A stretch of DNA of 64,000 nucleotides, taken from positions 32,001 to 96,000 of the IMG/VR virus record IMGVR_UViG_3300031867_000003; one strand, written 5' to 3'. Of this stretch, positions 2,607 to 16,489 are shown piece by piece (position 1 is the first letter of the stretch; each line of letters opens with the position of its first letter). The notes under the pieces were generated by a model. That model was not told where the DNA came from. It was given only the letters and a program-made list of their open reading frames with translations, and made no database searches. A program made the translations under genes and the position numbers. The DNA is from a virus (Duplodnaviria > Caudoviricetes).

Positions 2607-3062
2607 ATGACGATTAATTTTATTAATGCAGATATTAAAACTGCACCACAGGGTTATACAATGGTTACAGCATTTTCAGCAGACTTCAACTGCGATGTTG
2701 GTATCAATAAAGTAATGGATCAGATGTTTAATATTGAGAAACGTAAATCCAATATTAAAGTATTTAAGGGCAAAAAGCTTGCCCGACTTGATAATTTATA
2801 TATGCTGCTTGTAAAAGACAGTAGTTATGATAAACCGGTATTTGACAATCTTATTGCTTGCCTTGAAGAATTCAAGACCAAGTGTAAAAAGAACGGTATC
2901 ACAAAAGTTGCCATGCCGGCAATTTGTACTGGGAAAAATGGTTTTGCTGTTGATGACGTGATTCAGGCAATTGATGAGATATTTTTCGACACTGATATTA
3001 GTATTGTAATGTATGTAGGTGATGAAGTATTTAGGTATGTTTGTTCCGCATATGAGGGTTAA
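2607..3062 (+). CDS. macrodomain protein (divergent TARG1/DarG-like)
   Basis: SADF..GI, LYMLLVK and AMPAICTG motifs. Paralog of 28037..28489. Confidence 0.65.
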   Translation: MTINFINADIKTAPQGYTMVTAFSADFNCDVGINKVMDQMFNIEKRKSNIKVFKGKKLARLDNLYMLLVKDSSYDKPVFDNLIACLEEFKTKCKKNGITKVAMPAICTGKNGFAVDDVIQAIDEIFFDTDISIVMYVGDEVFRYVCSAYEG

Positions 3063-3064
3063 TT

Positions 3065-4324
3065 ATGAGCGATTATAAGCCTGTATATTTAGTGATGGTA
3101 TCATCTAACAATAACAATAAATACTATCGTATGCTGGCGAATACCGATGGCGAAACTTTTACGGTTCAGTATGGCAGAGTAGGGGCGAGTTCTCAAACGA
3201 GGACTTACCCTCTGCGAGACTGGGATAAGAAATACAACGAGAAAATCCGCAAAGGTTACGTAGACCAAACACATCTGATGGAAGATTTAATATCGGTGGT
3301 GGATACGAAGCCGGATACTCCGGAGTATAAAGCAATCGAGAACGCTGCTATAGCAGAGATTGTTGACCGCTTAATGAGTATGGCTAAAAAGAAGGTCCAG
3401 CAGAATTACCGTGTGGAATCAAATCAAGTTACTCAGGCGATGGTTGACGAAGCGCAGAAAATAATTGATAGCCTTACAACTATAACAACGATTAAAGCGT
3501 TTAATGAGGAATTGATGAAACTGTTTACCACAATTCCGCGAAAGATGGGTAATGTTAATGATTATCTGGCTAGGTCAACTGATGATTTTGCCCGTATTAT
3601 TAAAGACGAACAAGATCTGCTTGATGTTATGCGAGGCCAGGTAATCACTCACTCGGCTATGGATGATAAACAGACGGCTTGGGATGATAGCGTTGAAAAT
3701 TCTCCGAAGAATGACAAGACCATTCTTGAGGCTATGGGTATTGTGATGAAACCCGTTAACGATGCCGAAGTTGAAGTCATTAAAGATATGTTGGGCGACT
3801 GCAAGGATAAATTCTATCAAGCGTGGAGAGTAACCAATTTGGCTACTCAAAAACGATTTGATGATTTTGTAGATAAAGAAAATATTAAAGATGTTAGGTT
3901 GTTTTGGCATGGGAGCAGAAATGAGAACTGGTGGTCAATTATTAATAATGGTTTGATGATTAGACCTACAAATGCTGTGATTACAGGAAAATTATACGGA
4001 TACGGTATTTACTTCGCCCCTAAAGCAAGAAAATCATTAGGGTATACAAGTTTAAGTGGCAGCTATTGGGCGAGAGGTGATTCATCATCTGGATTTATGG
4101 CATTAATGGAAGTTGCATATGGAGAACCATATGATGTTTATTCTTTTGACAGCAAATACAATTCATTAACTTATGATGAACTTCAAAAGTTTAAAAGAGG
4201 GGCTAATGCATTACATGCTCATGCCGGAGCCGACATGGGTTATGGCAATCCATTAAGAAATGATGAAGTAATAGTATATAAGGAAGATCAAGTAAGTATT
4301 AAATATTTAGTTGAATTGAGGTGA
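3065..4324 (+). CDS. PARP-family ADP-ribosyltransferase (WGR-like, helical regulatory and catalytic domains)
   Basis: NNNKYY...YGRVG WGR-like domain. H-Y-E triad in WHGSR, YGIYFA and NDEVIVY. Confidence 0.88.
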   Translation: MSDYKPVYLVMVSSNNNNKYYRMLANTDGETFTVQYGRVGASSQTRTYPLRDWDKKYNEKIRKGYVDQTHLMEDLISVVDTKPDTPEYKAIENAAIAEIVDRLMSMAKKKVQQNYRVESNQVTQAMVDEAQKIIDSLTTITTIKAFNEELMKLFTTIPRKMGNVNDYLARSTDDFARIIKDEQDLLDVMRGQVITHSAMDDKQTAWDDSVENSPKNDKTILEAMGIVMKPVNDAEVEVIKDMLGDCKDKFYQAWRVTNLATQKRFDDFVDKENIKDVRLFWHGSRNENWWSIINNGLMIRPTNAVITGKLYGYGIYFAPKARKSLGYTSLSGSYWARGDSSSGFMALMEVAYGEPYDVYSFDSKYNSLTYDELQKFKRGANALHAHAGADMGYGNPLRNDEVIVYKEDQVSIKYLVELR

Positions 4325-5566: not shown

Positions 5567-5830
5567 AGTCAACATAAGCACCAACTAAATATTTGAGGAA
5601 GGAGTTCATTATGAATTATCGGACATGTCCAATCTGTGGAAGAGCAATGATCCTGTGCAGTACATACGCACACGGTCAAGTACCTAAAAGGATTTTTAAA
5701 TGTAGCTGCGGTTTCCGGACAGATGTGGATATGTCCGGTTTGTCGTATAGCGACTTTCTTAATCGATATCACTTTGGTGATAGCAACACAAATAACCATA
5801 ACAAACCAATTAATTATTAAAGGAGCAATA

Positions 5831-6682
5831 ATGATAACAAACAAAATTAGACTGATTGAGCTATTCGGCGGCGTGGGATGCCAGTCGATAGCATTGAGGG
5901 ATTTGGCTATTGCTAATGGTCTTAATCCGGATGACGTATTTGAACACTATAAATTGGTCGAGTTCGATAAATTTCCGGTCAAAAGCTATAATGCGATTCA
6001 TGGTACGGATTTTGTACCGATGGATATTCAAGAAATTCATGGCGAAGACATAGATGTTGAGGAACCGGACAAATATACGGCAATCTGGACGTACTCGTTC
6101 CCATGTCAAGATCTTTCAGTGGCTGGAAAACAAGCTGGGATGGACAGAGACAGCGGAACTCGTAGTGGATTACTTTGGCAAGTAGAACGTTTATTAAACG
6201 AAGTACATAATCTTCCGAATATCCTTATCATGGAGAACGTCACACAAGTCCATAGCAAAAAGAATCTTCATAACTTTGAAGAATGGTGCCAGTTCCTCGA
6301 ATCCAAAGGATACTACAACTATTGGCAAGACCTTGAAGCCAGTGAGTATGGTGTACCCCAGCACCGCAACCGTTGTTTTATGGTAAGTACCCTCGAAGAA
6401 ATCAACTTCGAATTTCCGCAGCCGATTCCGCTCCATGAGGTTATGAAAGACCGACTCGACCCAGTTGTAGATGAGAAGTTCTATATCAACAATGAAAAAG
6501 CGGATGCTCTCATTCAGCAGCTTATTGCCGACGGTAAACTTGATGAGGAGACAATCCTCGAAGCTGTTGATTTATCAGTTAATAACCCAGACACTCTTGA
6601 TATTGCGAATTGTGTCAGTGCGAGAACAGACCGTGGAATCAGCAACCGCAGATCTGAGGGATCGGGAGTTGTGCAATGTTGA
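5831..6682 (+). CDS. C5 DNA methyltransferase, N-terminal catalytic part (motifs I-VIII plus one TRD-like module)
   Basis: ELFGGVG (I), SFPCQDLS (IV), MENV (VI), PQHRNRCF (VIII). Motifs IX and X are absent. Confidence 0.92.
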   Translation: MITNKIRLIELFGGVGCQSIALRDLAIANGLNPDDVFEHYKLVEFDKFPVKSYNAIHGTDFVPMDIQEIHGEDIDVEEPDKYTAIWTYSFPCQDLSVAGKQAGMDRDSGTRSGLLWQVERLLNEVHNLPNILIMENVTQVHSKKNLHNFEEWCQFLESKGYYNYWQDLEASEYGVPQHRNRCFMVSTLEEINFEFPQPIPLHEVMKDRLDPVVDEKFYINNEKADALIQQLIADGKLDEETILEAVDLSVNNPDTLDIANCVSARTDRGISNRRSEGSGVVQC

Positions 6683-7820: not shown

Positions 7821-8016
7821 AAAGCTATTAGATTCTCGCTGTCTTGTGCCAAAACGTACCGAGTATGGTAAGCGTATACGCAAAGATTATGAGGCACATC
7901 GATTATATGAGCATCGTTCCAACATGATGATGTTACATCCTCGCACAGACGGATGCATAAATACATTAACAACAATACTAAAGGATAACTACATCCTGGA
8001 AATATATGAGAGATAG
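7807..8016 (+). CDS. TRD-like mini-gene 8
   Basis: RTEYGKRIRKDYE...PRTDGCINTLTTILKDNYILE. Confidence 0.72.
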   Translation: MEKNEKLLDSRCLVPKRTEYGKRIRKDYEAHRLYEHRSNMMMLHPRTDGCINTLTTILKDNYILEIYER

Positions 8017-8212
8017 TAATAAAGATAATGATAACAAACTAGTGCCGATTTGTCTCGGCGGAATCGGCGAAATTAATTATGGCAAGCAATATCGCCTCGG
8101 TAACCGTGTTTATGACAGCAGAAGTGTTGCCATGGCACACTGTGCTAATCCTGTCGGTAATCTCGGCGGTTATACATATTTATATTTAGTAGTAGAGGCT
8201 AATAATGAGTAA
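8006..8212 (+). CDS. TRD-like mini-gene 9
   Basis: LGGIGE...GNRVYDSRSVAMAH...GGYTYLYLV. Confidence 0.7.
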   Translation: MRDSNKDNDNKLVPICLGGIGEINYGKQYRLGNRVYDSRSVAMAHCANPVGNLGGYTYLYLVVEANNE

Positions 8213-8630
8213 ACCACTTTTTAAACTTGACAATCATTTATTATATTTTGATTATATATTGGAATACTTTGACTTATTTCATCCGATGTTTTACGTGTGC
8301 AGGGACGATAATGATGAACGTTTTTTGGTTTTGAGGATGGATTTATGTGAGAAGGAATCATACTTGATTACCGAAATCAGCCTAAACGATTTAAATAATA
8401 TGCTATTAGGGAATATCACTATAAGATCGGCATTTCTTGATCGATCATCATTCTACGAGGTTCACTGTTTAACGGAGAACTACTCAGATGACGTAGTAAC
8501 AAAACGTGAAATATCAGAATTCCCTATAGAATACTTACCGGGTAAAGATTATAAATATGTTCTATATGATGACGAGCATAGAGAGTATCAAAAACGAATT
8601 GCAAAAGAATTGGAGAAAACCAATAGTTAA
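8205..8630 (+). CDS. unrelated hypothetical protein inserted in the TRD array
   Basis: 141-aa acidic ORF with no TRD-module motif. Confidence 0.7.
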   Translation: MSKPLFKLDNHLLYFDYILEYFDLFHPMFYVCRDDNDERFLVLRMDLCEKESYLITEISLNDLNNMLLGNITIRSAFLDRSSFYEVHCLTENYSDDVVTKREISEFPIEYLPGKDYKYVLYDDEHREYQKRIAKELEKTNS

Positions 8631-8632
8631 TT

Positions 8633-8854
8633 ATGCAAGAAATTGGACTAATATTTTTAGGAGGTCTCGAGAGTAGCCTGTGGCTAGATAACGGCAAGAG
8701 ACTATCTCGGAATTTCCGCCAAGGATACAGAGTATATGATAGCCGAGGATTAGCTAATACACTACCGAGTAGTAGCATTGGCGGTCTCGGCGGTAACAGT
8801 GGATTATATTTGGTAATTGAGGTAGATAATGAGTTCAGTAATAGCGGAAGATGA
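8633..8854 (+). CDS. TRD-like mini-gene 10
   Basis: LGGLE...QGYRVYDSRGLANTL...GGNSGLYLV. Confidence 0.72.
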   Translation: MQEIGLIFLGGLESSLWLDNGKRLSRNFRQGYRVYDSRGLANTLPSSSIGGLGGNSGLYLVIEVDNEFSNSGR

Positions 8855-9055
8855 CCCTTTCAATATTATTAAAAATAACCGGTATGGGGGGGGAGATATA
8901 AGATGTTTTACGAAAAACATGGATATATTCCCGGAATTTTTCACCCATATAGTTTACAAGACACTTCGCAGATAGCTTGTACACTGTGTTGTGATTGCGG
9001 AGCGCCGGGACATGCAAGTAATATGATGGTGATAACTAAGGAAAGGATTGATTAA
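8829..9055 (+). CDS. TRD-like mini-gene 11, frameshifted at G8 (8886-8893)
   Basis: MSSV...NRYGG, then RYKMFYEKHGYIPGIFHPY...IACTLCCDCG...MMVI in a shifted frame. G6 or G9 restores the frame. Confidence 0.68.
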
Positions 9056-9057
9056 AT

Positions 9058-9348
9058 ATGAGTAGTGATAATATGACAGAAACAAAATACCGTTACAGAA
9101 TTCGCAAGCTTACGCCAAAGTGTTGTTGGCGTCTGATGGATATAGCCGGTCCAAATGATGAATACTTTAATCGGGCTGAACAAGTCAATTCGAATTCACA
9201 ATTGTACAAGCAGGCCGGCAACGGCATCGTCCGCTCAGTGCTGATGGGCATTTTCTCGCAGCTTGACATCGCCGGCATCCGCAAGTGGAATGACATGAGC
9301 GATGAAGAAATTAACCGTATGTTACATTATCAAGAAATTACCTCTTGA
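9058..9348 (+). CDS. C5 DNA methyltransferase, C-terminal part (motifs IX-X)
   Basis: RIRKLTPKCCWRLM (IX) and SQLYKQAGNGIV (X). Confidence 0.9.
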   Translation: MSSDNMTETKYRYRIRKLTPKCCWRLMDIAGPNDEYFNRAEQVNSNSQLYKQAGNGIVRSVLMGIFSQLDIAGIRKWNDMSDEEINRMLHYQEITS

Positions 9349-9410
9349 TTAATTATTAAATGTGTGGTAATGTATAGATAATCAATTAATTATTAAAGGA
9401 GGCATCCCAC

Positions 9411-9644
9411 ATGGCAGAACCCGGAACCCTAACCCAGGAGCATGTACTCCAGTGGACGAATACGATGATGGATTTGTACACGGACAGACGACTGATGACG
9501 TTCGGACTATTCCGAGATTTGTTTAACCACATCGAGTGGTACTACTGTAAGTATCCGGACGGTACAGTGGTGAAACTGTCGGGGAACGTCCACGTAGCTA
9601 TTGATGAGTTTAATAAGCGGTCGCCGAATAGTACCGCAATATAA
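9411..9644 (+). CDS. hypothetical protein
   Basis: SD AAGGAGG. Follows a promoter-like TTGATT-17-TAATGT at 9345-9373. Confidence 0.65.
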   Translation: MAEPGTLTQEHVLQWTNTMMDLYTDRRLMTFGLFRDLFNHIEWYYCKYPDGTVVKLSGNVHVAIDEFNKRSPNSTAI

Positions 9645-9657
9645 GGTGGTGATTATC

Positions 9658-10227
9658 ATTAGCAAATATAGCGGGAAATGCGATCTATACGATGTTCTTG
9701 TAGATATCCGTGAAATCACTGACTTCTCTAAAGTAAAAATATACTCGGCTAACAATTCTATTATCCCGTTACGAATTGATTCTCAGAAAGATTTAATGCC
9801 GTACTACCCATATATAGTCGCAATAAGCGTTGGGGATAGTGACGGCACTCAAATTATCCACTTGAGTGATAAATCTTACGTTGACACCGAAGAAGAAGAA
9901 CATCTCATCTGGGATCTTGATACTCTTAAGCGGTATTATCGCCGCCAGAAGCGCAAACATCAGCCGTTTGATAGCGATGAAGCGCTGAAGAAAATAAGTT
10001 TTTTTGACGACCCTGCCGAGTACAAGAAAGAACTTGTTAATCGTGTCATAGAACTCGGCGAAAAAGCTACCATAGAAGATATACATATCCCATTCATGGA
10101 TACCATGAGACAGCGACTTTATGAAGATATGGTTGCTGCTGGATGGAATGACGATAGAGCTTATGAGTGGTGCTTCGGCTGGAAGAGATTGTGGGATAGG
10201 ACGAAAAACACCTTGTCCAAAAGCTAG
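9658..10227 (+). CDS. hypothetical phage protein (start uncertain, likely ATT after AAGGTGGTGA)
   Basis: SKYSGKCDLYD N-terminus. Ends at TAG, so it may extend about 6 codons under code 15. Confidence 0.6.
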   Translation: MSKYSGKCDLYDVLVDIREITDFSKVKIYSANNSIIPLRIDSQKDLMPYYPYIVAISVGDSDGTQIIHLSDKSYVDTEEEEHLIWDLDTLKRYYRRQKRKHQPFDSDEALKKISFFDDPAEYKKELVNRVIELGEKATIEDIHIPFMDTMRQRLYEDMVAAGWNDDRAYEWCFGWKRLWDRTKNTLSKS

Positions 10228-10299
10228 GAAAACACTAGAAAATAAATTATTAAAAAATGCAATGAAAATTGAATTTTATTGGAAGATATTAGGCTTCCT

Positions 10300-10490
10300 A
10301 CCGGGCGAGGTATTATCCCACGCCCAATAATCACGGATATTCCGCGAGGGATATTTCGTGCGGGTTATTTTGGCCCCGAAAGCTGAGGGAGTATATTTTG
10401 ATGATGGGTTATACACCGTTACGATGTATTCCGGAGAAATATATTACCACTCGGCAAAACCGATGTAAATTTTATACAGTGCCGAATGTG
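10300..10490 (+). ncRNA. putative tracrRNA of the Cas12f-like system
   Basis: 5' hairpin GGGCG...CGCCC. Anti-repeat ACCGATGTAAATTTTATACA (10459-10478) pairs with the repeat, using G:U pairs and one bulge. Confidence 0.7.
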
Positions 10491-10496
10491 AATTTG

Positions 10497-11059
10497 AGGT
10501 TGTAGATGTGAGGATTTACATTGGTACAAAACCTTTGCCAATCGTTCTACGTCCGAATACTTGTTTTATAGATGTGAGGATTTACATTGGTACAAAATCT
10601 TAGCCATCAAAATCCCTCATTTGTAACTGTTTTGTAGATGTAAGGATTTACATTGGTACAAAACCTTATCTGGAAGATATGTCAGTGAAGGAAGTTTTGG
10701 AAATGTAAGGATTTACATAGGTACAAAACTTCAAGCCAGCTTGATTTAAGTTTACGCTTGTTTTGTAGATGTTAGAATTTATATTGGTACAAAACCCACC
10801 GGATCCGAACGATACTGATTGACATGTTTTGTAGGTGTAGGGATTTACATTGGTACAAAACTAGAGCCGACAAGGGGAATGCATAAGTTTCGTTTTGCAG
10901 GTGCAAGGATTTACATAGGTACAAAACCATAAAGACAAAGCCCGAAACGCCATCAACGTTTTGTAGGTGCAAGGATTTACATAGATACAAAAACTCGGCA
11001 GTTTCGAAGTTCTATAGACTTCTACTTTGGAAGTGTAAAGATTTATGTGGAGATATAAT
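10497..11059 (+). CRISPR. CRISPR array: 8 repeats plus 1 degenerate terminal repeat, 8 spacers of 29-30 nt
   Basis: Consensus GTTTTGTAGATGTAAGGATTTACATTGGTACAAAAC (36 nt) at 10497, 10563, 10629, 10694, 10760, 10826, 10892 and 10958. Degenerate copy at 11024. Confidence 0.95.
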
Positions 11060-11061
11060 AA

Positions 11062-12408
11062 ATGATTACGAGAAAAATTCAGTTATATCCTATTGGAGAT
11101 GAAAAAGAAGTTGATAGAGTATACACATATTTAAGAGATAGCATTAAATCGCAGAATAAAGCGATGAATCAATATATGTCTAATCTGTATGTGGAAGAAT
11201 TATTAAATGCGTCCAAAGAAGATCGAAAAGAATTAAATGCATTATATACTAGAATTCCGACCAGTAAAAAAGGAAGCGCTTATAGTCTGGATTTGGAATT
11301 CCAAAAAGGACAGATGCTTGGTTATATAACCAGAGCAATAGATTCAGATTTTAAAAAATCACTAAAAGACGGGTTGATGTATGGGAAAGTATCTCTCCCG
11401 GTTTACTCAAATAGCAATCCGTTATTAGTTCATGTGAATTATTGCAATTTGCGTAGTAAGGTTCAAAAACAAACAGGCACTAACACTGGTATTTACCACA
11501 ACTACGAATCTCATCAGGAGTTTTTATCTCATTTGTATAAAACAGATATAGAAATATATCTTCAGTTCTGCAATAATATTTTGTTTAAATTAAATCTCGG
11601 TGATAGCCTCAGAAAATCTCGCGAAATCCGTTCAGTAATACAGAAAATATTTGAGGAAGAATATATTATCCACGGTTCGCAGATCCAGTTAAAGAAGAGG
11701 AAAACTGGCAAGGGCGAAGATATATTCTTACTGCTATCAATCGAAACTCCGGTTGTTAAGCATGAACTTGATGAAAATATTGTTGTCGGCGTAGATCTCG
11801 GCGTGGCAAATCCGGCAGTATGTGCAGTAAACATTAACGGCAATTATAAATTCCTGGGCGACGGAGAAACATTCCTTCATTATAAACAAAAATCCAAAGC
11901 CGAAAGACGCAGACTTCAGAGAGCTCTAAAGTATACAAATGGCGGTCACGGAAGAACCAAAAAACTGAAAGCACTCGATAGATTGAAAGAACGTGAGAGC
12001 AACTTTACTACAACGTATTCTCATAAGCTCTCAAAAGATGTTGTAGATTTTGCCATTGAACAGCATGCCAAATACATCAACCTCGAGGATTTAACCGGAA
12101 TAGATGACAAAGATGGTAAAAAACTTCTCGATTGTTGGAAATACTACGAACTTCAGCAGTTTATTATCTACAAAGCTACTCATCATGGCATAGTAGTCCG
12201 CTTTATTAATCCAAAATATACATCTCAGACTTGTTCCAAGTGCGGAAATCATGCCGAGGGGCAGCGTGACGGTCATAGTTTTACATGTAAAGATTGTGGC
12301 GAAGAGCTTGATGCCGATCTTAATGCAGCCAGAAACATTGCTATGTCAACAAATTTTGTTGAAAGAGGCAAGAAGAAAAAGAAAAAGAATAAAACCGATA
12401 ATAAATAA
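11062..12408 (+). CDS. cas12f: Cas12f-like (TnpB-derived, type V-F/V-U3-like) RNA-guided nuclease
   Basis: 448 aa. RuvC GVDLG, NLEDL and DADLNAARNIA. Zn ribbon CSKC/CKDC and GGHGRTKKL motif. Directly follows the array. Confidence 0.82.
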   Translation: MITRKIQLYPIGDEKEVDRVYTYLRDSIKSQNKAMNQYMSNLYVEELLNASKEDRKELNALYTRIPTSKKGSAYSLDLEFQKGQMLGYITRAIDSDFKKSLKDGLMYGKVSLPVYSNSNPLLVHVNYCNLRSKVQKQTGTNTGIYHNYESHQEFLSHLYKTDIEIYLQFCNNILFKLNLGDSLRKSREIRSVIQKIFEEEYIIHGSQIQLKKRKTGKGEDIFLLLSIETPVVKHELDENIVVGVDLGVANPAVCAVNINGNYKFLGDGETFLHYKQKSKAERRRLQRALKYTNGGHGRTKKLKALDRLKERESNFTTTYSHKLSKDVVDFAIEQHAKYINLEDLTGIDDKDGKKLLDCWKYYELQQFIIYKATHHGIVVRFINPKYTSQTCSKCGNHAEGQRDGHSFTCKDCGEELDADLNAARNIAMSTNFVERGKKKKKKNKTDNK

Positions 12409-12570
12409 TATTTTGCCTGAGACGGCATTGTTACTACCGAAGAAATGAATTCGGTAGCTAATAACTGACCAATTAAGCGGTGGGTTGGGGTTAGCTCCGA
12501 AAGGTGATTATGTCCAAGGATGAAGTAACTACCGCATCTACTAAGAGATAAAATATAATAGTTGGAAGGA

Positions 12571-13668
12571 GTGATTACTATAGATATTGATGTTAGTGAA
12601 TTACGGGTGGGATAGGTTTATAGTTATAAAGAATTGTGTGAACTGATAGGTGCTGAGTATAAAAAAGGCGCTGGCAAAACTTATCAACTAGAAAAATTTG
12701 GAGAAACAGGATTTCAGAGATTTTTTAATTTTGAAAAAGTAGGACGAGGAAAGTATGAGGTTCTTGAAATCTATGATGAACCGCTCCCTATAGAAGATGA
12801 AAGACATAAAGGTAATAACAAAGTATACAAACATTACATAGAGCTGGTATTAATGAATTATCTGGCGAAGAAAGGTACTCACGTTGAAACATTTACTATG
12901 AGAGATCTGTGGCAGCTCCTCGGAATGATAAATGAAAAATATGGGAAAGTAGATAACGATAAACTACTTTCTATGAATAGCTGCATTACGTCATATGAAA
13001 TTAATAATTTCTATTTTAGGAGTGATAAAAAGTTACGTCAAATATTATTATCCGCACTTAAAAATTTGCGCAATAGAAGATTAATAGACTGGCAATTACA
13101 AACAGTTGTCTGTAAAGAGAAGAACGGCAAGGAAGAATGGTTTGTAGCTAATGATAGCGAAATAGAATTAATTCTTGATGCAGAATACGAGATACTTCAT
13201 CGAATGGGATTTACAAAAATGTTTCAGGTGATTTCTTCTTTTAAAACAAAAGAATTTTATACAGCCGTCGAGAATCTTTTATATAAGAAGAAAAAATGGA
13301 AAAATTATTATAAGCGATATAAAATTATATTCAACGCCAACAACATAAAAGAATCCGTTCCCGACGTCGAAGCAGAGCTAAAAAGAGCATTATTAAATGC
13401 AAAAATCATATTATACTTAAATAACGAAGCAGAAACGGCATATAATTCAAAACTAAAAGAATACAATGGCAATCTGGCGCATGAAGTTTACGTTCAAGGA
13501 AATATTATTGAAGCACTACATGCTTTCAAATATCCCGATGATTATGTAGTTGCTCAGAGGATGTTGTCAGATGAACTTATTAATACGCATGATTACTCGC
13601 CCGAAATTATTAATGAGTTACTTAATACAGAAGCGTCAGATAAAGAATTGGATATGATGTTTCCTTGA
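12571..13668 (+). CDS. putative DNA-binding or replication initiator protein with in-frame TAG (12613-12615)
   Basis: ELRVG(TAG)VYSYKELCELIG continues into the 344-aa ORF. Start uncertain (GTG 12571 or ATA 12580). Followed by an AT-rich inverted repeat. Confidence 0.55.
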
Positions 13669-13680
13669 TGGAGAATTTTT

Positions 13681-13745
13681 TTACACAATTTATAATTTCA
13701 TACTATATAATTCCTTAGTATAGTATACCGTTTTAAATTGTGTAA
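13681..13745. repeat. AT-rich inverted repeat, possible origin element
   Basis: TTACACAATTTA...TAAATTGTGTAA enclosing ATACTATA/TATAGTAT. A second hairpin lies at 13817-13846. Confidence 0.55.
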
Positions 13746-13892
13746 TCGGAATTATATTACTGTCTACCTCAACAAAGCATTGTTTCGGTAGAAAAAATCT
13801 TAATTTATTAACTAGCCCGCATCGGCAAATACTTTTGTCGGTGCGGAAAATATAAACTAATAACCATATATATTCCCAAAGGAGGACACCTT

Positions 13893-16489
13893 ATGTACGC
13901 AGAATGCATCAATCCACCAAATGAACTATTTACTAGCGGAGAATTATACCAGTATTCACAACCTGGCGAAGATTACGAAGTCTACGTAAGCGACTACTAT
14001 ACGTTGCTGTTATCTGATGAACAATTTGATTATTACTTCCGACAAGTATAAGGAGATTTTGCCATGGAACGATTATCTGGCGAATACAATCGCGGTTTTA
14101 CACAAGGGATTCTCGCAGTTCAGGGCGTACTCAAATACATACAGCCAGATTTATCCCATCACCACAAACGACTAACTCCAAAGTTGATAGATGAATTATT
14201 AAAATGTTGTATAGATAACCGTGAAAATCTGCGAGAGAGTGTTAATGGCTTCATTAGATATAATGGTACTACTAAATCATTTGAGTTTTATGAGCCGAAT
14301 ACAAGGAGGTAATCACTATGAATGAATCAAAATTTGCTGTAGGAGACAAGGTTGTCCTCGGCTACCGTAGGGTTTTAAATCCTGCTATCGGCATAGTCAT
14401 CAGAGTTACCGATAAGCGGAAGGATGTGATCGTAGATTTTGACGGATTCCAACAAACATTTGATTGCTATGGTCGCAGTAAATCCGTTGACATATGGTAC
14501 AGTAGCTACATTGAGTTACTTACCCCGGCTATGGAACAAGACATCGAGGATAACTTGGTAATCGCCAAGTGTAAAAAGATGATGAAAGATACCACATTGA
14601 TCAATGCCGATCAGGCAGCCAGAATAATTGCAATTCTTGAGGAGGAATCCAATGAACATTGATATTATTAATAATAATGGTAACACTACCGACAAAGAAC
14701 TCCCCGACATCTATCCCCTTACCATAGTTCGCGATCGATATAATGGTACGTATTCCGGTGGTTATTTTACCGCATGGAATCTTTATCCCTGGGGTATTCC
14801 GGAGGAAGTTTTTGGCGATGATAATTCATGTTGGAGTTATTTCAGAACTACTCGTGATATATATGGATGCGGAGCCACTCCGGATGAGGCAATTGCGAAT
14901 TTAGCAAAAAGATTAAAGGAGAATATAGATGATGAGTAAGGATAATCACAAAGTAACCGCCACTTGGTCTGGGAATTACCCGTGTTTATGCATCGGTACC
15001 TGGACACTGACTATTGACGGTGTCGATTATACTGACCATATACCCCGGGAAATTGTTAATGAACCGATGTACACCTTCGGCACTTATACTGAGTGGTACT
15101 TTGATGACGAATGGCAAGAGCAATTTAATGACTACGAAGACGGTTTATCCTCTGTCGATTGGATCGCCGCTAATGATGAATGGCTGAGTACGATAACCGA
15201 TGATTATAACCTCAAATCCCAGATTTACTTCGCATTTAATAAGAACGATTTCCGCTATGGTAGTTGTGGCGGTTGTATATGATGAGATGATTAAGGAGAA
15301 TTCTCTATGGTAAGAATTATTATTTGTGGTTCACGAGAGTTTAATGATTATGCCAAACTTTGCCGAGTAATGGATAATATCGGCATCCATGCTATTGCCA
15401 ATAACGATTATGTCGAAATTATCAGCGGTCATTGTCGGGGAGCAGATATCTGTGGCGAAAAATTTGCCACCACGTATGGCTATCCGCTCAAGGTGTTTAA
15501 AGCCGATTGGGAGACTTACGGTAAAGCTGCCGGACCGATCCGTAATCGCCAGATGGCCAAGTATGCCGCCCAGGCTGATGAGGGCGTTGTAGTTGCATTT
15601 CCGATTGGATCAAGCCGTGGAACTCGCCATATGGTAGACATTGCTAATCAGTATGGACTTGAGGTTTATGTAATTGAGGAGAACGATGATGTCGAAGCCG
15701 ATTGAAACAAGTGATAGCAAACCTAAATTTCTTTCATTAATAGACGAATTGGAAGAATCCGGCAAATTCCCAAGCTATGAACAGTTTTTGGAACTTTATG
15801 ATTGTGCTTATAATGAGGGATACAAGAGAGGGCACGATGATGGTTACAAGGTAGGGCTAGCCGTAGGAAAATATTCTAAGTGGCTGGAAGCACACGAAGA
15901 GGATAACCCTATGGACAATACGAAAAATCGCAACTGTCACTCGTGTAAGTATGATAATCAGTATAACGTACATTGGTCATGCTGCTTGTGTCGTGCCGGA
16001 AGTCAATGGGAGAGCGCCGATGAAGAACAGAATTAAACGATTTATTAAACAGTTGTTTTGTCACCATGAGTATCATATAATCCGTTGGCATTATACTCAT
16101 GGTCCGATAAATAATGATCCGCCGTTTATTGAAGGTCTCAAGATGTGTGCCGAATGCGGTAAAAGGAAGTATTTTTATTGTTCCCAAAGTAGTGAACTCG
16201 GAAAATATATTATGACTTGTCTGCAAGGACGACAGTGGTAAGGAGAATTAGTATGAAAATAAAGGTTAAAGATTTATTTGCGAATGTTCTATTACCGAAT
16301 GCTATTGTCCTATTACTCATTGAGGACGGCGGTTTTGTCGGTATATTTGAAGCAGGAAGTTATCCGGTACAATATGCGTGGTGGGAAGTAACCGGTGTAA
16401 CCAGCGATTACTTCGAAGGTGATGGACCGTTTGATGGATCGGTAGTTAAGGTATGGATTAAAGAATCTGATGATGATGAAGAAGGTTAA
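13893..16489 (+). other. cluster of small hypothetical ORFs (e.g. 14064, 14318, 14652, 14929, 16020, 16253)
   Basis: Tightly packed ORFs with SD sequences and overlaps. Confidence 0.65.
15307..15705 (+). CDS. SLOG-family (DUF2493/YspA-like) protein
   Basis: IICGSREF, ISGHCRGAD, GKAAGPIRNRQM and SRGT motifs. Confidence 0.85.
   Translation: MVRIIICGSREFNDYAKLCRVMDNIGIHAIANNDYVEIISGHCRGADICGEKFATTYGYPLKVFKADWETYGKAAGPIRNRQMAKYAAQADEGVVVAFPIGSSRGTRHMVDIANQYGLEVYVIEENDDVEAD

Follow-up and report, generated by a model that had tools for sequence, protein, structure and literature searches.

The closest described relatives of the locus treated here are the TranC systems, transposon-CRISPR intermediates from which type V is reported to have formed through a functional split of the omegaRNA (Jin et al., Cell 2025;188:6283); further accounts are found in PMC13565253, PMC13639567 and bioRxiv 10.64898/2026.03.27.714800. 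As outlined in these sources, TranC cleavage can be guided by both a CRISPR RNA and an reRNA. For Cas12 tracrRNAs in general, an anti-repeat duplex combined with a pseudoknot at the 3' end of the repeat has been described (bioRxiv 10.1101/2025.01.20.633832), and in a lineage of RpoE-associated inactivated Cas12f/TnpB proteins a half repeat is fused with the tracrRNA, which re-creates an omegaRNA (PMC10691335). In type II-A systems, ATTTGAG/GTTT is the conserved leader-repeat junction that is needed for spacer integration, and the integration signals are restricted to about 10 nt of the leader (PMC5382924).

The locus belongs to a rumen phage with a 202-kb IMG/VR record that is rated complete by CheckV, and the window, that is, the whole 64-kb stretch of DNA that was analysed, comprises bases 32001-96000 of that record. 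A CRISPR array and the gene of a RuvC effector follow each other head to tail:

10499-11059, + strand: CRISPR array; eight 36-nt repeats and a degenerate ninth one, separated by spacers of 29-30 nt
10499-10532, + strand: repeat 1, 34 nt, with the partner of the anti-repeat at 10514-10525 and the pseudoknot partner CAAAAC at 10527-10532
11024-11059, + strand: degenerate ninth repeat, which holds the ribosome-binding site GGAG of the effector gene (11049-11052)
11062-12408, + strand: TnpB-like / Cas12f-like RuvC effector, 448 aa, with an intact D245-E342-D419 triad and a CxxC...CxxC zinc ribbon

The repeat consensus, GTTTTGTAGATGTAAGGATTTACATTGGTACAAAAC, from which the copies deviate by 1-3 bases, is palindromic and self-folds with -10.5 kcal/mol (GTTTTGTA with TACAAAAC, ATGTAA with TTACAT). 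Repeat 1 has 34 instead of 36 nt because its T-run is 2 nt shorter. A divergent 5' end of this repeat had been pointed out in a first-pass annotation of the sequence, and deviant it is, but the deviation is a 2-nt deletion private to the window phage; in the 97%-identical relative L003, repeat 1 is intact. Both the effector gene and the RNA scaffold described below occur once in the genome. Searches of the 202-kb phage genome gave no match for Cas1 or Cas2 and none above the family cut-off for Cas9, the best Cas9-type signal being a 21-bit sub-threshold HNH-like match.

As far as TranC is characterised in the outlines cited above, the locus resembles it in its TnpB-sized effector that is close to TnpB, in its short array, in its lack of adaptation genes and in a guide that appears, here in silico only, as an omegaRNA/reRNA split into a tracrRNA and a crRNA; phage-borne TranC examples, such as CauTranC9, exist as well. 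It differs from TranC as outlined there in the position of array and tracr upstream of the gene, with the tracr placed in a leader that has a type II-A end, and in that relatives of the window carry several orthogonal scaffold-array units per locus.

The effector combines the Pfam domains OrfB_IS605 and Cas12f1-like_TNB (E 3.7e-24 for the latter). It passes the NCBIfam model guided_TnpB with 176.6 bits against a cut-off of 100, and fails the Cas12f2 model with 131 bits against a cut-off of 450. Among 17 homologues D245, E342, D419, C391, C394 and C409 are invariant and C412 is nearly so. Its best relatives of solved structure are Cas12f-type chains, with 8hr5 at the top (E 4e-62), which was deposited as 'Transposase' and which we take to be CnCas12f1. 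The locus thus resembles Cas12f (type V-F) in having a miniature RuvC and zinc-ribbon effector with Cas12f-type best structures, and an anti-repeat duplex plus pseudoknot; it differs in that the PDB Cas12f chains align to effector residues ~160-440 only, i.e. the C-terminal ~280 residues, in the failed Cas12f2 model, and in an array that lies upstream and not downstream of the gene.

Homologues of the effector number in the thousands, and some of them are annotated as IS605 OrfB. A single-protein search of IMG/VR returned no effector relatives, whereas an alignment-based search found them. In the window the array adjoins the effector gene, and of some 90 related loci nearly all share this arrangement; in homologues with 97, 71, 66, 64 and ~58% identity the array lies directly upstream of the gene, and the leader is conserved in each. 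The P0055 contigs have the same genes next to the locus. In the neighbourhoods, which were viewed unsystematically, no TnpA was seen near any locus, and no transposon ends were seen.

Between position 10326 and the array, a structured RNA is predicted with the following parts:

10326-10474, + strand: tracrRNA / omegaRNA-derived scaffold (covariance model R1, 70.4 bits, E 7.5e-13)
10332-10336 with 10356-10360, + strand: stem 1 of the scaffold
10361-10364 with 10375-10378, + strand: stem 2, CGGG with CCCG, with compensatory changes in RNAalifold
10367-10372, + strand: pseudoknot strand ATTTTG, pairing with the repeat-terminal CAAAA immediately 5' of the guide
10382-10389 with 10447-10455, + strand: stem 3, GCTGAGGG with CCACTCGGC, with compensatory changes in RNAalifold; it encloses a lineage-specific insertion
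10459-10478, + strand: anti-repeat ACCGATGTAAATTTTATACA, with the conserved core ACCGATGTAAAT at 10459-10470 and a lineage-specific extension to 10478

The order of these elements is conserved in the leaders of related loci: a hairpin after AATCAC, then CGGG-TTATTTTG-CCCG, GAAAG, a stem TGAGGG/CCACTCA, an A-rich run and the anti-repeat. The covariance model R1 was built from the scaffold alone, without the repeat, and it has 171 matches in 78 phage loci, every one of them on the strand of the effector. Among 150 aligned matches, the 63 IMG/VR loci contribute 66 upstream and 76 downstream of the gene, and 50 of these loci have at least two. RNAalifold on 8 sequences predicted the helix of anti-repeat and repeat 1 unprompted, together with two scaffold stems, and 9 of 20 pairs were compensated. 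An Rfam scan of 8000-15000 (E<=1) returned no family.

The first-pass annotation had also described a TCGGCA/TGCCGA stem that brackets the anti-repeat. The two arms exist, at 10451-10456 and 10480-10485, but the bracket is not conserved: L003 has TGCCGG, and L004-L006 are without an equivalent. Moreover, the TCGGCA arm overlaps the conserved stem 3 strand CCACTCGGC at 10447-10455 and so conflicts with a conserved stem.

The anti-repeat itself has the sequence and position that had been given for it, and its partner in the repeat is ATTTACATTGGT. RNAduplex pairs 10456-10478 with the repeat through 15 bp, a 1-nt bulge and 4 bp, in agreement with the pairing with G:U pairs and one bulge that had been claimed, and because the duplex contains G:U pairs it assigns the RNAs to the + strand. 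Repeats 1-3 and 6 give about -19 to -20.1 kcal/mol and repeat 5 gives -17.6 kcal/mol; the duplex is weaker with repeats 4 and 7, and poor with 8 and 9, which are older repeats.

From the window by itself, this pairing is not clearly above chance. It tops the 4.1 kb flanks on both strands narrowly, with -22.5 against -21.2 kcal/mol for the next local match, and it is weaker than the duplexes at unrelated sites in other parts of the 64-kb window (-24 to -27.5 kcal/mol). As AT/GU-rich sequence gives a high background, a scan of duplex energies cannot judge the anti-repeat by itself. The segment might then be a chance match or a decayed 'repeat 0' in the leader, the more so as a degenerate copy of a palindromic repeat would resemble an anti-repeat, and GATGTAA indeed occurs in both the anti-repeat and the 5' half of the repeat. 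We find this reading hardly credible: the segment forms the 3' terminus of a scaffold defined by a covariance model, its G:U pairs give it strand specificity, and across many lineages it tracks the 3' strand of the repeat. The shifts occur in step, with compensatory changes in L004, L005, L011, L028 and others, of which three examples are listed:

Window: repeat strand ATTGGT, anti-repeat ACCGAT
L004: repeat strand ACGGGT, anti-repeat ACCTGT
L005: repeat strand ATAGGT, anti-repeat ATCTGT

Covariance across homologous loci had been proposed as a check, and it settles the question. In a comparison computed by script, the pairing within units was set against pairing with the repeats of other units (67 distinct units, 10,000 permutations that ignore relatedness among the units). 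For the anti-repeat and the 3' strand of the repeat the energies were -11.4 kcal/mol with the own and -7.3 kcal/mol with other repeats, and none of the 10,000 permutations was as good. The same holds for the ATTTTG strand and the last 5-6 nt of the repeat, with -3.6 (own) and -1.4 kcal/mol (other; 0 of 10,000). Despite the kinship of the units the conclusion is robust, given how many independent compensatory classes there are; the pseudoknot shows 11 of them, for example TTCAG/CTGAA, TTTGG/CCAAA, TTTCG/CGAAA, CCTTT/AAAGG and GTGTGA/TCACAC. Comparative covariation hence confirms the predicted anti-repeat as genuine, and the predicted contact of 10367-10372 is of the pseudoknot type that is known from Cas12f-type guides and omegaRNAs.

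A different result was obtained for the two ends of the repeat, whose complementarity could in principle provide the palindromic hairpin handle of tracr-independent crRNAs, as in Cas12a/Cas12j, with the scaffold as a relic or in another role. The stable self-fold of the consensus repeat would suit such crRNAs. However, the 5' and 3' ends pair with -2.56 kcal/mol within the own repeat and with -2.51 kcal/mol between units, 3,477 of the 10,000 permutations being as good (p ~0.35), and repeats that end in CTGAAC or TCACAC still start with GTTT(T)AGA. As this complementarity does not covary, while both scaffold strands do, the scaffold is the conserved partner of the repeat 3' end, and selection does not maintain a self-contained repeat hairpin. 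Given also the conservation of the scaffold in 78 loci, we consider tracr-independent crRNAs very improbable.

The relatives of the phage inform on the origin of the scaffold. In L007/L027 a scaffold is also present after the stop codon of the gene, where anti-repeat and repeat strand fold into a single hairpin with a 5-nt loop, and TACAAAAG and a single guide come next. A similar fused scaffold with a single guide lies directly after the gene in L017-L019, and the array of these loci is found ~85-125 nt away from the scaffold. Fused single guides, scaffolds with few repeats and full arrays are all present, so that three forms occur within one phage family. This supports a descent of the scaffold from a TnpB omegaRNA, and the interpretation as an intermediate between omegaRNA and tracr/crRNA, which had been offered from the window sequence, holds because relatives carry the fused omegaRNA form too. 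The concept of such an intermediate is already published as TranC and hence is not new.

Compared with the omegaRNA of TnpB (OMEGA, IS200/IS605), the polarity of scaffold then guide is the same, the effector is above the guided_TnpB threshold, and the fused scaffolds of L007/L027 and L017-L019, right after the stop codon and with a single guide, are alike. What differs is that the window effector is a single-copy gene, and that the scaffold precedes the gene and supplies an array of 8 spacers with turnover. A TnpB module would further be expected to have a TnpA partner, several copies, and an omegaRNA at the 3' end of the gene with one guide at the right end of the transposon. Such a 3' omegaRNA is present in L007/L027; downstream of the window gene R1 has no match, and an intact one is missing there. 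Instead, the following is found:

12409-12570, + strand: structured non-coding stretch 3' of the effector gene (fold z-score -2.5)

Within this stretch, GGTGGGTTGGGGTTAGCTCCGAAAGGTGA aligns to the region of the scaffold from stem 2 to GAAAG. R1 does not match 12409-12570 even with its filters off, and the pseudoknot strand and the anti-repeat are absent from it. The stretch is possibly a decayed remnant of an ancestral 3' omegaRNA and stands outside our working model.

For the window locus we think it probable that 10326-10478 is the tracrRNA of a phage-encoded, TnpB-derived type V CRISPR system of the Cas12f-like/TranC kind, and that it is embedded in the leader, co-transcribed with the array and paired in cis with repeat 1 and in trans with the remaining repeats. 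The scaffold would touch the 3' ~19 nt of the repeat twice, through 10459-10470 with ATTTACATTGGT and through ATTTTG at 10367-10372 with CAAAA(C). Since it lies inside the leader, it would share one + strand precursor with the array, and the effector gene would probably belong to this transcript as well. Pairing in cis with repeat 1 would produce a single guide of the omegaRNA kind, with the newest spacer in it, and the remaining repeats would be paired in trans by scaffolds of other transcripts.

The spacing argues for a single transcription unit. In 106 related units the scaffold ends a median of 12 nt (IQR 8-15) before repeat 1; in the window this distance is 24 nt, and because a median gap of 12 nt leaves no room for a promoter or terminator, co-transcription of scaffold and array is strongly implied. 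A terminator that separates the tracr from the array had been named as an observation against this arrangement; the 20 nt that separate anti-repeat and repeat 1 contain no predicted terminator. Where a locus has several units, scaffolds begin at most ~30 nt after the array before them, and arrays run into the ribosome-binding site of the effector. Promoter-like matches near the locus were no commoner than in shuffles, and no confident promoter emerged; RNA runs covering 10200-11200 are not listed among public runs.

The cis and the trans form are more difficult to tell apart, as the covariation would fit cis and trans pairing alike. One alternative is a canonical dual-RNA system, in which host RNases or the effector release the tracrRNA, the pairing takes place in trans only and the fused molecule is a short-lived precursor; the proximity of tracr and array would then reflect compaction of the phage genome and the position of the integration site. 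Trans use is in any case unavoidable for most guides: each primary transcript holds one scaffold and eight spacers, so that a cis-only mechanism cannot serve the array. The anti-repeat pairs with repeats 2, 3 and 6 as well as with repeat 1, and the RNAduplex energies support trans pairing with most other repeats as energetically feasible, in line with the trans pairing that had been suggested for the other spacers. The distant arrays of L017-L019 point to trans-like pairing at a distance within the family, and TranC and Cas12f are described as tracrRNA plus crRNA in the published outlines. The very short conserved spacing without space for separate transcription signals speaks against the dual-RNA alternative, as do the fused single-guide forms of the same scaffold in relatives and the predicted folds, since both the MFE and the centroid structure of 10326-10562 include the helix of anti-repeat and repeat 1 in cis. 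Neither this dominance of the cis helix nor the other two points prove a functional cis form, which could be cut before loading, for example in the 12-19-bp duplex or in the loop. On balance we regard a canonical dual-RNA system as rather unlikely, if a serious contender, and we put the chance that the cis form is a mere precursor at about a quarter. Under the combined cis and trans reading that we prefer, a cis guide predicts that the newest spacer is favoured, because no repeat other than the one before it is physically joined to a scaffold.

Fusions of a tracr and a crRNA have precedents. The Cas9 tracr-L and the phage vsgRNAs (bioRxiv 10.64898/2026.06.01.729453) are natural fusions of this type, some of them phage-encoded, but these regulate or inhibit the Cas9 of the host, whereas the fusion in the window, if used, would arm the type V nuclease of the phage itself. 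In the RpoE-associated lineage (PMC10691335), too, the tracrRNA adjoins a (half) repeat, and single-guide forms are found beside array forms; that lineage is nuclease-dead and regulatory, in contrast to the window effector, which keeps its D-E-D triad and is accompanied by an array that appears to grow.

The short linker between anti-repeat and array ends in a motif known from another CRISPR type:

10492-10498, + strand: ATTTGAG leader-end motif of the type II-A kind, abutting repeat 1 (GTT)

The motif makes up the last 7 of the 20 nt that separate the anti-repeat from repeat 1. Of 130 distinct related units, 82 have TTTG[AG]G and then GTT at this junction, and the background frequency is 0.3 per kb. 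The linker is better explained by a leader end in type II-A style than by a guide loop. Spacer content in related arrays changes at this very end. Nested gains at the scaffold-proximal end lead from L029 to L028, from L031 through L034/L036 to L035, and from L028/L042 to L029; the window and L003 have their two oldest, trailer-end spacers in common and differ in the newer leader-end ones, six in the former and four in the latter. Such gain at the leader end of related arrays indicates that arrays grow at the tracr-adjacent junction, in a phage without adaptation genes. New spacers would be integrated at ATTTGAG/GTTT, presumably by adaptation proteins of the host, and we infer that these are type II-A proteins.

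The likeness to the type II-A junction (PMC5382924) extends from the identical 7-nt leader end to the 36-nt repeat GTTT...AAAAC, the 30-nt spacers and the gain at the leader end. In contrast to type II-A, the phage is without cas1, cas2 and cas9, its repeat is adapted in the 3' half to a scaffold of type V, and the guide lies 3' and not 5' of the repeat. The leader-end motif and the gain of spacers at the junction could also be taken to mean that the conserved leader sequence acts only as DNA, which is bound or bent for the integration of spacers, and not as RNA. Yet the type II-A signals occupy only ~10 nt of the leader (PMC5382924), whereas the 150-nt scaffold shows RNA-type compensatory changes including G:U pairs and is also found without an array, as a fused single guide. 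A purely DNA-level element is for these reasons highly improbable in our view.

A repeat-pattern scan of 185,579 species genomes yielded three contigs, two of them with a scaffold-array unit of the window type. One such bacterial bin contains Cas1 elsewhere in the bin and no ATTTGAGGTTT junction. A search for Csn2 in two bacterial bins gave no match, control genomes being blank as well. Protospacers did not come up when the array was compared with INPHARED phages in distant mode, nor did spacers 1, 5 and 6, compared through their first 24 nt, have an exact match in IMG/VR; as no protospacer was found, no PAM/TAM is derivable.

A more far-reaching scheme, which is possible and in our opinion doubtful, would treat the locus as a chimera. 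Its leader and repeats would mimic type II-A so that Cas1-Cas2(-Csn2/Cas9) of the host load the spacers, the tracr welded to the leader would turn each new spacer into an instant single guide, and the orthogonal multi-unit codes of the relatives would serve one effector. If it is true that the leader in type II-A style recruits the adaptation of the host, a virus would borrow the memory of one CRISPR type for a self-encoded nuclease of another. The tracr in a leader of type II-A style, the spacer turnover beside the tracr and the orthogonal multi-unit loci of the relatives may be new.

What has been shown in silico, namely the pairings, the homology of the scaffolds and the polarised gain of spacers, has a wider bearing in two respects. 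The phage family displays proposed stages of the birth of type V from transposons side by side, from the fused omegaRNA with one guide over the scaffold with one or two repeats to full arrays that gain spacers. In addition, both RNA-RNA contacts can be read from natural covariation, which provides a rule of guide design for a nuclease of ~430-450 aa without a solved structure. The architecture favours tracr and repeat 1 as one transcription unit, as had been proposed.

One further element lies directly upstream of the scaffold:

10303-10325, + strand: possible 5' hairpin GGGCG ... CGCCC, with no T-run after it

Hairpins of different sequence occupy the same position in L004 (GGTGGC/GCCACC), L006 (GTGAC/GTCAC) and L007 (GGTGG/CCACC). 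The hairpin may form an additional 5' stem of the RNA, or it may mark where the upstream transcription unit ends.

Near-identical phages related to the one studied here carry arrays that are otherwise identical and that differ by one or two additional spacers, which are found at the scaffold-proximal end, next to the omegaRNA-derived tracrRNA. These differences were seen in units, each consisting of a scaffold with its array, in the following sets of loci:

Related loci compared for spacer gain
L028/L029: unit at 874
L031/L034/L035/L036: units at 1083-1215
L028/L029/L042: units at 1213-1281

The extra scaffold-proximal spacers in these sets are a clean natural record of polarised acquisition in phage-borne arrays. 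In the window, repeat 1 (10499-10532) is 34 nt long and its 5' T-run is two T's shorter than that of the repeat at 79-114 in the 97%-identical relative L003. This loss falls exactly at ATTTGAG|GTTT, the proposed integration junction, and every repeat of the window array shows slight differences. This array may no longer be efficient at acquiring spacers.

In many related phage loci, a single effector gene, encoding the TnpB-like or Cas12f-like RuvC protein, is flanked by three to four or even more scaffold-array units:

Related loci with several scaffold-array units
L054, L056-L058, L061, L063: units at about 1014-1283, 2795-2883, 3012-3231
L083, L090: further examples

Each unit in these loci has a matched code of its own, made up of pseudoknot strand and anti-repeat. 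In L054, for example, the scaffold strands and repeat ends pair as TTCAG/CTGAAC, CCTTT/CTAAAGG and TTTTG/CAAAAC, and such pairings suggest that the multi-unit loci hold orthogonal tracr:repeat pairs that would all be served by one protein. The same scaffold, with a five-repeat array, also occurs on a Lachnospiraceae rumen MAG contig, L095 (4484-5727, minus strand), where only a 262-aa ORF follows the array at the position expected for the effector. The effector may be truncated there, or the contig may represent a prophage or a phage contig that was binned with the MAG.

At the other end of the window array (11024-11064), the ribosome-binding site of the effector gene (GGAG, 11049-11052) sits inside the degenerate last repeat (11024-11059). 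As the last repeat thereby supplies this site, the nuclease mRNA has the array in its 5' untranslated region. L005, L028 and L046 are arranged in this way too.

Directly 3' of the effector gene, the non-coding stretch 12409-12570 is structured (fold z -2.5) and contains GGTGGGTTGGGGTTAGCTCCGAAAGGTGA, which is similar to the portion of the scaffold from stem 2 to GAAAG. The pseudoknot strand and the anti-repeat are both missing from it, and a search with the scaffold model gave no match to it. L002, a 97% relative, has this stretch too, and L004-L006, L011 and L013 lack it. A decayed 3' omegaRNA is a possible identity for it.

With a start at the GTG at 12571, which is preceded by a good ribosome-binding site, GGAAGGAG, the ORF listed from 12634 could reach further upstream; the added part (12571-12633) includes a TAG in frame at 12613. 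Two separate regions, 5723-6682 and 9058-9348 (Pfam PF00145 matches), encode the N-terminal and the C-terminal part of a C5 cytosine DNA methyltransferase; they are about 2.4 kb apart, with numerous small ORFs in between.
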